A stretch of DNA of 64,000 bases from Escherichia coli (lineage in GTDB: Bacteria > Pseudomonadota > Gammaproteobacteria > Enterobacterales > Enterobacteriaceae): assembly GCF_013122565.1 (NCBI RefSeq), contig NZ_CP053258.1, one strand, 5' to 3'. Position 1 is the stretch's first letter. Each line of letters opens with the position of its first letter. Positions 37,189-47,256 of the stretch are shown one piece after another. The position numbers and the translations under genes were made by a program. The notes under the pieces were generated by a model. It had not been told where the DNA came from. It was given only the letters and a program-made list of their open reading frames with translations, and did no database searches.

Positions 37189-37593
37189 ATGGATCAGGTC
37201 GTTGTTTTTCAAAAGATGTTTGAGCAAGTGAGAAAAGACCAAAACTTTTCCTGGTTTTATTCAGAATTAAAACATCACCGTATTGCACATTACATTTATT
37301 ATCTGGCTACGGATAACATCAGAATTATTACTCACGATGACACGGTTTTGTTATTAAGAGGAACCAGGAACCTGTTAAAAGTTAGTACGACCAAGAATCC
37401 TGCCAAAATAAAAGAGGCCGCATTGCTTCATATTTGCGGAAAATCTACATTTCGGGAATACTGTTCAACACTGGCAGGCGCGGGCGTTTTCCGGTGGGTT
37501 ACTGATGTTAATCATAACAAACGCAGTTACTACGCCATTGATAATACGCTTTTATATATTGAAGATGTAGAAAATAATAAACCATTAATCTAG
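37189..37593 (+). CDS. ycgX: uncharacterized protein YcgX
   Basis: 134-aa ORF; synteny between bluR and iraM. Confidence 0.8.
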   Translation: MDQVVVFQKMFEQVRKDQNFSWFYSELKHHRIAHYIYYLATDNIRIITHDDTVLLLRGTRNLLKVSTTKNPAKIKEAALLHICGKSTFREYCSTLAGAGVFRWVTDVNHNKRSYYAIDNTLLYIEDVENNKPLI

Positions 37594-37796
37594 CTAAAGT
37601 TGGAAGCTTAAGAAATGCTTCATAATTCAGTAAGGCATTAGCATAATGGAACTAAAAGTGCAGAGACTATTCCTATAGATCTTATACTGCCTTTTTATTG
37701 CCATCCATAGATGTTCAGTAGACCAATACTATAAAATTGATATTGAAATGTGCTCCCTTGCTTATTGATACATTATTTTATACGGTTAGTTTTCCT

Positions 37797-37832
37797 CTAA
37801 AAACAACGGGCGTGCTATACGCCTGTTTCAAG
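37797..37832. repeat. terminator-like hairpin, imperfect copy of the icd terminator at 39091..39119
   Basis: AAAAACAACGGGCGTGCTATACGCCTGTTTCAA vs AAAAAAACGGGCGTGTTATACGCCCGTTTCAA ~1.3 kb away. Confidence 0.6.
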
Positions 37833-37969
37833 GCTTAACTCATATGAATTTTTCTTTATTTTTCATCACGTTATAATTTTTAACCAGCAACGAATTATCC
37901 TTCACTATAAAGTTCAATAGTTGAGACCTTATCCTCATGTCATGCGTATATTCATCATAATGATCCTTA

Positions 37970-37998
37970 GACAAAAAAAGCCAACCATGATGGTTGGC
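37970..37998 (-). terminator. orphan rho-independent terminator on minus strand
   Basis: GCCAACCA-TGA-TGGTTGGC hairpin, followed on the minus strand by TTTTTTT; no annotated minus-strand gene ends here. Confidence 0.5.
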
Positions 37999-38220
37999 AA
38001 AGTGGCACAAAGTAGCATAAAGGCTATGCTTTAATTACAGGAGGTTCAGACATTTGAATGTATATCGTTTTATCTAAACAGAACTAAAACGAAGTGAATG
38101 ATTTCATTTTTTCACTAAATCTCATTTTGTTTAATCTCTGTTGAGATTCCTTGTTTTAAATTTTGCTTTATATAAACAATAGCTTTATTTTTTAAATTGA
38201 TTTTTAGGTAATATAGAAAA

Positions 38221-38475
38221 ATGCAAAATCAAGGAATGAATATCCAAAGCAAACTATACGCATATTTAAATAAATATGACACTCGTCTTACAGAAGAAAA
38301 AATTGCGATTGAGAAAGCCATTAGAGAGTTACATTTTAGCAGCGAGCATGTTGATAACAAGAAAATAATACTGAAGTTACTATCATTTTTATCATATACA
38401 GATGATGTTGTCGAAAAAGACATTATCAGAAATGCATTGGAAGTGGTTCTTCTTTTTACTTCCGATGATATTTAA
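38221..38475 (+). CDS. AriR/YmgB-family small protein (paralogue of ariR)
   Basis: 84-aa ORF; C-terminal NKKIILKLLSFLSYTDDVVEKDIIRNALEVVLLFTSDD aligns with Ari[39 protein letters not shown]; weak RBS. Confidence 0.65.
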   Translation: MQNQGMNIQSKLYAYLNKYDTRLTEEKIAIEKAIRELHFSSEHVDNKKIILKLLSFLSYTDDVVEKDIIRNALEVVLLFTSDDI

Positions 38476-38717
38476 TTGAATTCATTAATTTTATTATCAT
38501 AATTATTTTCCGGACACTACATTTTTTACTTATGTTTAATAATAACCACTGCGAATGAGGGACGCACAGGTATATTTTTCTCACACCTGTGATGTAAAAA
38601 CACGATAAAATCCAAATAAAGAATAAAATTTGCGACCCCACCAGATGGATTGCATCACACATTATTATTCAAAATATTTATCAACATCATTAATAGCCGA
38701 AGGATAAGACATAACAA

Positions 38718-39041
38718 ATGAAGTGGATAGTAATTGACACGGTAATTCAACCTACATGCGGTATATCTTTTTCAGCCATATGGGGTGATATGAAAATGAT
38801 CGTCTGGTATCAATCTACTATATTTCTCCCTCCTGGCAGTATATTTAAACCGGTTAAATCTGGTATTATCTTTAAGGATAAAGAATACCCTATTACTATT
38901 TATAACATCGCACCATTCAACAAGGATTTATGGAGTTTACTCAAAAGCAGTCAAGAGTGTCCTCCAGGAGAAAGCAAAATAACAAATAAATGTTTTCATA
39001 ATAGTTGCATTATAAAAATATGCCCATATGGGCTCAAGTAA
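38718..39041 (+). CDS. iraM: anti-adaptor protein IraM (RpoS stabiliser)
   Basis: 107-aa [15 protein letters not shown]...ICPYGLK; matches my recollection of K-12 IraM; position adjacent to icd 3' end. Confidence 0.8.
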
Positions 39042-39090
39042 AGGGTTTCATATAAATATGCTCGATATGCTATTAATAATACCTACATAA

Positions 39091-39119
39091 ATAAAAAAAC
39101 GGGCGTGTTATACGCCCGT
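39091..39119 (-). terminator. rho-independent terminator of icd
   Basis: ACGGGCG-TGTTATA-CGCCCGT hairpin followed on minus strand by TTTTTTTAT, 25 bp downstream of icd stop. Confidence 0.8.
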
Positions 39120-39143
39120 TTCAATATTTAAAACATGGAGAGA

Positions 39144-40394
39144 TTACATGTTTTCGATGATCGCGTCACCAAACTCTGAACATTTGAGCAGCTTAGCGCC
39201 TTCCATCAGACGTTCGAAGTCATAAGTTACGGTCTTCGCGTTGATTGCGCCTTCCATACCTTTAACAATCAGGTCTGCGGCTTCAGTCCAGCCCATATGG
39301 CGTAACATCATCTCTGCGGAGAGAATAATAGAGCCTGGGTTAACTTTGTCCTGACCGGCATATTTCGGCGCAGTACCGTGGGTGGCTTCAAACAGGGCGC
39401 ATTCGTCACCGATGTTTGCGCCAGGGGCGATACCAATACCACCAACCTGCGCTGCCAGGGCGTCAGAAATGTAGTCACCGTTCAGGTTCATACAGGCGAT
39501 AACGTCGTATTCAGCCGGACGTAGCAGGATCTGTTGCAGGAACGCATCAGCGATCACGTCTTTAATGACGATCTCTTTGCCGGTGTTCGGGTTTTTAACT
39601 TTCAGCCACGGGCCGCCGTCGATCAGTTCACCGCCAAACTCTTCACGCGCCAGCTGGTAGCCCCAGTCTTTAAACGCGCCTTCGGTGAACTTCATGATGT
39701 TACCTTTGTGCACCAGGGTCACAGAGTCACGATCGTTAGCAATTGCGTATTCGATCGCTGCACGAACCAGACGTTTGGTGCCTTCTTCCGAACACGGCTT
39801 AATACCGATACCGCAATGTTCCGGGAAACGAATTTTCTTCACGCCCATCTCTTCACGCAGGAATTTAATCACTTTCTCGGCGTCGGCAGAGTCAGCTTTC
39901 CATTCGATACCCGCATAAATGTCTTCCGAGTTTTCACGGAAGATAACCATATCGGTCAGTTCAGGGTGTTTAACCGGGCTTGGAGTGCCCTGATAGTAAC
40001 GTACCGGACGCAGGCAGATGTAGAGATCCAGTTCCTGACGCAGGGCAACGTTCAGAGAGCGAATACCGCCACCTACTGGAGTGGTCAGCGGGCCTTTAAT
40101 GGCAACGCGATATTCACGAATCAGATCAAGGGTTTCAGCAGGCAGCCAGACATCCTGACCATAAACCTGTGTGGATTTTTCACCGGTGTAAATTTCCATC
40201 CAGGAGATTTTACGCTCGCCTTTATAGGCTTTCTCGACTGCAGCGTCGACCACTTTCAGCATGGCTGGGGTTACATCTACACCGATTCCATCACCTTCAA
40301 TGTAAGGGATAATCGGATTTTCAGGAACGTTGAGTTTGCCGTTTTGCAGGGTGATCTTCTTGCCTTGTGCCGGAACAACTACTTTACTTTCCAT
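39144..40394 (-). CDS. icd: NADP-dependent isocitrate dehydrogenase
   Basis: 416-aa ORF matching K-12 Icd; intact 3' end with no prophage junction. Confidence 0.97.
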
Positions 40395-46508: not shown

Positions 46509-46525
46509 AGTTTATTTAATGTTTA
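46509..46525 (+). promoter_or_regulatory. PhoP box of the phoPQ autoregulated promoter
   Basis: AGTTTA-TTTAA-TGTTTA direct repeat ~60-75 bp upstream of phoP start. Confidence 0.8.
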
Positions 46526-46584
46526 CCCCATAACCACATAATCGCGTTACACTATTTTAATAATTAAGACATGGAGAAATAAAA

Positions 46585-47256
46585 ATGCGCGTACTGGTTG
46601 TTGAAGACAATGCGTTGTTACGTCACCATCTTAAAGTTCAGATTCAGGATGCTGGTCATCAGGTCGATGACGCAGAAGATGCCAAAGAAGCCGATTATTA
46701 TCTCAATGAACATTTACCGGATATTGCGATTGTCGATCTCGGATTGCCTGACGAAGACGGTCTGTCACTGATTCGCCGCTGGCGTAGCAATGATGTTTCA
46801 CTGCCGATTCTGGTATTAACCGCCCGTGAAAGCTGGCAGGACAAAGTCGAAGTATTAAGTGCCGGTGCTGATGATTACGTGACTAAACCGTTTCATATTG
46901 AAGAGGTGATGGCGCGAATGCAGGCATTAATGCGGCGTAATAGCGGTCTGGCTTCACAGGTCATTTCGCTACCCCCATTTCAGGTTGATCTCTCTCGCCG
47001 TGAATTATCTATTAATGACGAAGTGATCAAACTGACCGCGTTCGAATACACCATTATGGAAACGTTGATACGCAATAATGGCAAAGTGGTCAGCAAAGAT
47101 TCGTTAATGCTACAACTCTATCCGGATGCGGAGCTGCGGGAAAGCCATACCATTGATGTACTGATGGGACGTCTGCGCAAAAAAATTCAGGCACAATATC
47201 CGCAAGAAGTGATTACCACCGTTCGCGGCCAGGGCTACCTGTTCGAATTGCGCTGA
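46585..47256 (+). CDS. phoP: Mg2+-responsive response regulator PhoP
   Basis: 223-aa ORF matching K-12 PhoP; TGATG overlap with phoQ. Confidence 0.97.

Follow-up and report, generated by a model that had tools for sequence, protein, structure and literature searches.

Which transcript is ended by an intrinsic terminator that reads on one strand when the genes on both sides of it lie on the other? This question is raised by a hairpin in the Escherichia coli locus bluR-ycgX-[AriR-like]-iraM-icd, which was analysed within a stretch of 64,000 nucleotides, termed the window; all positions refer to this stretch unless stated otherwise. An earlier note on this DNA had placed the hairpin between two plus-strand genes, and both ycgX and the AriR-like open reading frame indeed lie on the plus strand (Table 1).

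Table 1. Positions of the genes, predicted RNA elements and candidate promoter motifs at the ycgX-iraM locus; A to D denote the alleles described in the text
Feature	Position	Strand	Remarks
bluR	36237-36968		Open reading frame and annotated relatives
ycgX	37189-37593	+	Open reading frame and annotated relatives
U7 tract of the terminator (A7 on the plus strand)	37973-37979	-	U6 in alleles C and D; U5 in the K-12 type
Terminator hairpin GCCAACCA-UCA-UGGUUGGC	37980-37998	-	Predicted fold -11.4 kcal/mol; stem invariant in A, C and D
ymgK homologue, window product M(M)VGKVAQSSIKAML	37987-38034	+	ATG in the hairpin loop
Single-stranded linker ACUUUGUGCCACUUU	37999-38013	-	U-rich, just 5' of the terminator; 87% of columns invariant in A, C and D; predicted unpaired
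Stem-loop 1, AGCAUA-GCCUU-UAUGCU	38014-38030	-	-4.3 kcal/mol, z = -3.0; conserved in A and C
Predicted 5' part of the RNA, GUCUGAACCUCCUGUAAUUAA	38031-38051	-	5' end inferred; 43-52% conserved, A versus C/D
Candidate -10 hexamer TACATT	38057-38062	-	TACATT in A, B and D; TATATT in C
PhoP-box-like direct repeat (box 2), CGTTTT-AGTTC-TGTTTA	38075-38091	-	10/12 consensus positions
Divergent candidate PhoP-box promoter (box 1), TGTTTA-ATCTC-TGTTGA, 12 nt, TAAATT	38128-38162	+	11/12 consensus positions
YmgB/AriR-family gene, 84 aa	38221-38475	+	Pfam PF10798; present in A, C and D, deleted in B
iraM	38718-39041		Open reading frame and annotated relatives
icd	39144-40394	-	Open reading frame and annotated relatives

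On the plus strand positions 37973-37998 read AAAAAAAGCCAACCATGATGGTTGGC; on the minus strand this is GCCAACCAUCAUGGUUGGC followed by UUUUUUU. In plus-strand letters the hairpin is GCCAACCA-TGA-TGGTTGGC, directly adjoined by the run of seven A. Its 8-bp stem is free of mismatches, contains five G-C pairs and closes a loop of 3 nt. The two marks of an intrinsic terminator, a stable GC-rich stem-loop and a U-tract immediately 3' of the stem, are both present. Folding of the isolated hairpin gave a z-score of -3.6. Both strands of the window were searched for uninterrupted stems of 8 bp or more that contain at least 4 GC pairs, close a loop of 3-8 nt and have at least 6 T in the following 8 nt. 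Four distinct sites were found, one of them being the icd terminator, whereas dinucleotide shuffles of the window contained on average 0.025 such sites. The earlier description, in which a perfect stem of 8 bp closes a 3-nt loop and is followed on the minus strand by a run of seven T, is thus confirmed by sequence, fold and shuffles. A second copy of the hairpin was not found in the 64-kb window even when up to three mismatches were allowed. On the plus strand no T-run follows the hairpin (the sequence there is AAAGTGGC), and therefore the terminator signal is unidirectional.

The sequence in which the hairpin is embedded is unusual for the species. While the sequences on either side share about 98.5% identity with ordinary E. 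coli, the intergenic stretch 37600-38260 has only about 81% identity to the allele of nearly all strains. At least four deeply diverged alleles coexist between ycgX and iraM, and this sequence divergence suggests an ancient polymorphism or import from a relative. The arrangement of the window (allele A) is present in 10 of 5426 complete E. coli genomes. Allele C, found in 19 of these 5426, encodes an AriR-like protein of 86 aa that is 75% identical to that of the window. Next to it lies the gene for an IraM-family protein (loci L005 and L009, about 3510-3833) with 70% identity to the IraM of the window; for the IraM of K-12 the value is 94%. Allele D (loci L020 and L022) was not found among the complete E. 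coli genomes. Alleles C and D came to light through searches at the protein level and look-ups of contigs. Allele B, the common K-12 type, has lost the AriR-like gene by deletion. The gene is retained in the three deeply diverged alleles A, C and D, with coding DNA about 80% identical, and together with an intact hairpin it occurs in only about 0.5% of the complete E. coli genomes. Strains with an intact allele include LHM10-1 (NZ_CP037903.1), PT62 (NZ_CP090448.1) and, for allele C, EC42405 (NZ_CP043414.1).

The phage search gave no matches, the plasmid matches were chromosomal fragments carrying the K-12-type allele, and a metagenome scan returned one matching contig, which carries allele A. 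When a conserved 20-mer was compared with species-representative genomes, the single match was a 558-bp low-coverage contig of an Oceanospirillum linum assembly, which we take to be a contamination; no further species representative matched.

Several further observations concern the neighbourhood of the element. The deletion in allele B corresponds approximately to window positions 38255-38670 and has left an open reading frame of 22 codons, MQNQEINILMNHIKYRGIRHNK (L002, 2429-2497), whose TGA overlaps the ATG of iraM (ATGA). One possibility is a translationally coupled leader open reading frame in the 5' UTR of iraM. In allele C (L005, L009) the iraM-like gene is followed by a TrkH-family gene in place of icd, and the published transcription-start sequence of iraL was not found in these two loci. 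Downstream of ycgX, the homologue of the small K-12 open reading frame ymgL (37646-37756, plus strand) is interrupted in the window, where codon 11 is an in-frame TAG (MELKVQRLFL*). Another conserved hairpin, GGCGTGCTATACGCC, is located at 37809-37823, with an A-rich stretch on one side and a T-rich stretch on the other, and may terminate transcription in both directions after ycgX. Variants of this hairpin lead to G.U pairs on the plus strand, and the stretch is absent from the L005/L006 allele.

The divergent alleles allowed us to compare the conservation of the element with that of its surroundings. Between A and C the coding DNA of the AriR-like gene and iraM differs by about 20%, and the noncoding DNA flanking the element is 34-61% identical. 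By comparison, identity is 88-92% in the U-run and hairpin, 87% in the 15-nt linker and 94% in stem-loop 1. Among A, C and D not a single stem position of the hairpin is changed, whereas the loop occurs as UCA, as CCA or in a form shortened by one base. In allele B, on the other hand, the hairpin has decayed, with two to three mismatches and a folding energy of 0 to -2.7 kcal/mol. Since the hairpin is intact where the AriR-like gene is present (A, C and D) and decayed where it is lacking (B), the intact terminator travels with the AriR-like gene. Stem-loop 1 shows A.C mismatches on the minus strand in allele B. In allele D one change gives a U.G pair on the minus strand and a mismatch on the plus strand, so that five of the six minus-strand pairs are kept. 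Counting pairs across the alleles, we found no compensatory covariation in either helix; support for the element therefore rests on conservation and not on covariation. The A-run of the plus strand is kept in all alleles and no T-run follows the hairpin on the plus strand, which together point to the minus strand. Judged from these sequence comparisons, the hairpin is probably a selected minus-strand terminator.

The earlier note had also offered the hairpin as a relic of a lost gene. A neutral relic, be it the terminator of a vanished minus-strand gene or a chance palindrome, would agree with the absence of a minus-strand gene today, with the mosaic nature of the locus, its deletions and very divergent alleles, and with the decay of the hairpin in the commonest allele. 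Such a relic would not, however, remain free of mismatches in three alleles whose coding DNA differs by about 20% and whose adjacent noncoding DNA differs by 40-65%, and chance supplies only the 0.025 sites per window mentioned above. The minus-strand open reading frames spanning the hairpin are, moreover, unconserved. As the hairpin block surpasses the neighbouring genes in conservation and decays only in the allele without the AriR-like gene, we disfavour the relic and regard it as very unlikely.

The palindrome could also be read as DNA. A perfect dyad of 19 bp, located in a conserved block about 130 bp upstream of box 1, could be the operator of a dimeric regulator upstream of PhoP promoters. 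The 1-nt deletion in the centre of the palindrome that is found in most C alleles argues against this proposal: it alters the spacing of the half-sites, which a palindrome bound by a dimer would probably not tolerate, but leaves a good hairpin of -10.4 kcal/mol, and an RNA structure is therefore favoured over a protein operator. The conserved A/T-run next to the dyad is in keeping with a terminator, and no candidate regulator is known. We consider an operator most unlikely.

A different function for the same block is suggested by an annotated small open reading frame that the earlier note had overlooked. At the orthologous position of K-12 the plus strand carries ymgK (b4738), an open reading frame that lies antisense to the 3' arm of the hairpin, the linker and stem-loop 1. 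Its product, MFSKLAQSSIKAMF (14 aa), has been detected in K-12 by SPA tagging (PMC6001520). The conserved block could thus act on the plus strand by encoding YmgK, with the hairpin sequestering the ymgK start codon in the mRNA and the A-run being incidental. Alleles A, B and D have an open reading frame of 14-15 codons with a common stop. In the B alleles, two changes within stem-loop 1 produce G.U pairs on the plus strand (probability by chance one in four), which favours plus-strand pairing and is a point against a minus-strand RNA. In most C alleles, however, the frame is broken (MGLAKWHKPA), and in C1 it is extended to 29 codons, although the nucleotides are conserved. The one variable codon encodes S, T or R; all changes observed were non-synonymous and none synonymous. 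The constraint on the block thus seems to act on the nucleotides and not on a protein. In the window allele the open reading frame is not preceded by a Shine-Dalgarno sequence, and its ATG falls within the -11.4 kcal/mol hairpin; a Shine-Dalgarno-like AAGG occurs only in the decayed allele B. The proposal also gives no role to the conserved A-run, and we judge it unlikely. Since YmgK is antisense to a decayed element and most C alleles have a disrupted frame, the protein may be a recent by-product of the decay. The possibility that ymgK is the stump of the AriR-like gene was rejected: ymgK overlaps the hairpin, and the stump is the separate open reading frame of 22 codons described above.

Just past the stop codon of the ymgK-like open reading frame we noticed a perfect AGGAGG (38040-38045, plus strand), which is not conserved in C and D. 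It is followed only by tiny open reading frames starting with TTG at 38053 (7 codons) and ATG at 38057 (9 codons). In a minus-strand RNA the same positions would read CCUCCU, resembling an anti-Shine-Dalgarno sequence.

If the hairpin ends a minus-strand transcript, a promoter has to be expected at higher coordinates. The minus-strand promoter prediction proposed in the earlier note yielded a candidate PhoP-box promoter at 38091-38057, in which box 2 is separated by 12 nt from the hexamer TACATT. In relation to the consensus (T/G)GTTTA-N5-(T/G)GTTTA the second half-site of box 2 is perfect and the first matches at four of six positions. Box 2 is present in all four alleles; it is 94-100% identical between A and C, and 88% of its columns are invariant in A, C and D. 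The distance to the hexamer is 12 nt in A, B and C and 10 nt in D, and in the former three alleles the spacer sequence varies while both motifs stay. This arrangement resembles the architecture I of PhoP promoters, in which a direct-repeat box in direct orientation lies 12 nt (11 nt in yrbL) upstream of the -10 element (Zwir et al. 2012, PMC3335776).

Box 2 is not the only such motif at the locus. Both strands of the window, that is 128 kb of sequence, were scanned with a custom program for a PhoP box combined with a -10 hexamer. Only five matches were obtained, including box 2, box 1 and, as positive control, the known autoregulated phoP promoter at 46509-46542 (plus strand; box AGTTTATTTAATGTTTA, 11 nt, CATAAT), downstream of which phoPQ is located (phoP, 46585-47256). 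Shuffles of the 627-nt intergenic spacer contained two or more such sites in just 0.25% of cases. As expression of iraM depends on PhoP (PMC10948607), the box 1 promoter is the obvious candidate for the source of this control; the AriR-like gene would be the first to be transcribed from it in the window. Together with iraM this gene probably forms one unit driven from box 1. From its motifs we infer that box 2 with TACATT is a putative PhoP promoter on the minus strand; box 2 could instead be an auxiliary upstream PhoP site of the plus-strand promoter ("architecture II").

Two other minus-strand promoter candidates were dropped. The sigma-70 type sequence TTAAAC-17-AAAAAT (around 38134-38106) is unconserved in allele C, and in a sigma-54-like TGGCAC...GCA in the linker the GG-to-GC spacing is, as inspected by eye, short by one base.

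Transcription from box 2 would give rise to an RNA of about 78 nt extending from about 38051 to 37973 on the minus strand. Its 5' end was placed 6-7 nt past the -10 hexamer after the example of mgrR and is an inferred position. The predicted fold consists of an open 5' part, stem-loop 1, the U-rich linker and the terminator. Small RNAs that bind Hfq are usually built from just such an open 5' part, a stem-loop, a U-rich linker and a terminator, and their 3' module comprises the terminator hairpin, a U-rich stretch before it and a poly(U) tail of about seven or more after it. In sequence and predicted fold the 3' end ...CACUUU-[hairpin]-UUUUUUU agrees with this module, and the RNA may bind Hfq. 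In the 5' part a UGUAA..AAAG motif is conserved and the remainder is poorly conserved; A and C are 48% identical there, so that a conserved seed was not recognized. Pairing of the RNA with the leaders of the AriR-like gene and iraM was not above shuffled controls in matched and swapped allele pairs (z = -0.5 to +1.1). A minus-strand open reading frame of 9 codons (ATG at 38053) was dropped; it lacks a Shine-Dalgarno sequence and is absent in allele C.

No Rfam match with an E-value up to 10 in the scanned region 36000-40000 overlapped positions 37900-38100, the annotation of MG1655 lists no ncRNA at the locus, and in the literature we found no paper describing a small RNA between ycgX and iraM. 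The unannotated minus-strand small RNA suggested in the earlier note is nevertheless the best-supported explanation of the terminator, with the modification that the RNA would start at about 38051 and not, as had been assumed, within 38100-38220. We assign a rough probability of 0.45, that is somewhat below even odds, to the reading that the terminator ends a discrete, PhoP-driven small RNA on the minus strand. The 48% identity of the 5' part, which is unusual for a seed, the 10-nt spacing in allele D and the match of box 2 at only 10 of 12 positions speak against it.

In the main rival to this reading, the hairpin would be a backstop without a functional RNA, which stops divergent, antisense or pervasive minus-strand transcription before it reaches ycgX and bluR, with box 2 serving as a second PhoP site of the plus-strand promoter. 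Such transcription could originate from the AT-rich, H-NS-bound promoter region or from the interior of the AriR-like gene. The spacer between iraM and ycgX is a SELEX site of the RpoD holoenzyme marked for H-NS (PMC3946193), and several minus-strand pairs of sigma-70-like hexamers lie within the AriR-like open reading frame, for example at 38282-38253. Second upstream PhoP boxes, also in reverse orientation, have been documented and can counter H-NS (PMC3335776). In addition, the hairpin at 37823-37809, next in the direction of minus-strand transcription, is likewise terminator-like on this strand. The poor conservation of the 5' part would be expected if the RNA had no function, and decay of the terminator after deletion of the AriR-like gene would follow if antisense transcripts had started in that gene. 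Two features are left unexplained by a backstop: the 32 nt upstream of the hairpin, comprising linker and stem-loop 1, are equally well conserved (87-94% between A and C), and in three alleles a -10 hexamer is found at the canonical distance of 12 nt to box 2. We regard a backstop as less likely than the small RNA.

Published transcription data of K-12 bear on the direction of transcription. K-12 coordinates are obtained by subtracting the window coordinate from 1250294, and the minus strand of the window corresponds to the plus strand of K-12 (the mapping was checked). On this strand a region of Rho-dependent termination with a peak at 1212310 has been reported, with 45 upstream and 42 downstream reads without bicyclomycin and 122 and 293 reads with the inhibitor (Adams et al. 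2021, PMC7815308). The peak lies inside the decayed K-12 hairpin (1212296-1212314). Because the Rho region is on the same strand, transcription in the minus direction of the window crosses the site in K-12, at a low level in LB, where the coverage at the site is low. As the resolution of the score is coarse, we count this as weak support for a minus-strand transcript. The K-12 Term-seq table of the same study lists no 3' end at 12123xx, the SMRT-Cappable-seq tables of K-12 contain no entry for the locus, and the main text of a paper on small proteins at low Mg makes no mention of iraM or ymgK.

We propose the following model for the small RNA. The hairpin and U-tract would work as a Rho-independent terminator on the minus strand and end a noncoding RNA of about 78 nt running from about 38051 to 37973-37979. 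Its likeliest promoter would consist of the PhoP box at 38091-38075 and, 12 nt further on, TACATT at 38062-38057, placed back to back with the plus-strand PhoP-box promoter of the AriR-like gene and iraM. With two PhoP-box promoters in this arrangement low Mg2+ would induce both directions, and the RNA, having the layout of an Hfq-binding small RNA, would presumably be regulatory. An extended version of the model, in which a PhoP-activated, Hfq-type small RNA persists in the rare alleles, became a pseudogene in K-12 and most strains upon deletion of the AriR-like gene and left a remnant whose opposite strand was then translatable as YmgK, is a tentative proposal and, taken as a whole, rather unlikely.

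If the model applies, E. coli would have a second PhoP-controlled small RNA, encoded beside iraM, which links Mg2+ starvation to the stability of RpoS, and laboratory K-12 would hold just the wreck of this module. YmgK would then lie on the decayed antisense strand of a small RNA gene, a case of a small RNA gene giving way to a de novo small-protein gene, which bears on the origin of very small open reading frames and on the weight that should be given to a single tagging result. If only the terminator is real, it would be an ordinary insulator in an H-NS-bound intergenic region.

The hairpin, its K-12 counterpart and the predicted RNA can each be compared with a known system. Like the hairpin, the icd terminator of the window (39122-39096) combines a GC-rich perfect stem and a short loop with a T-run directly after it, and both are detected by the same scans. 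The icd terminator follows a gene, whereas the minus-strand hairpin follows no annotated gene and is located upstream of a plus-strand promoter region. At ymgK of K-12 the DNA is orthologous, but it has a destroyed hairpin and a Shine-Dalgarno-like AAGG; in the window the hairpin encloses the ATG, and in allele C the open reading frame is not maintained. The closest comparison for the predicted RNA is MgrR, a PhoP-activated, Hfq-binding small RNA of E. coli with a length of 98 nt as against about 78 nt. There is no sequence similarity between the two; in contrast to MgrR, the candidate has PhoP and Hfq traits that are predicted, and only about 0.5% of complete E. coli genomes have it in intact form. 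Both are short and end with a GC hairpin and a long U-tail. In the mgrR promoter (CGTTTA-ACATT-CATTGA, 12 nt, TACTGT) the PhoP box is placed 12 nt from a weak -10 hexamer, as proposed for the candidate, and the box 1 promoter shares this layout and is almost identical in sequence. While mgrR overlaps the 3' end of mgtT convergently, the candidate is divergent from the promoter of the AriR-like gene and iraM. Each of the two adjoins another PhoP-controlled gene, which in the case of mgrR is the small-protein gene mgtS.
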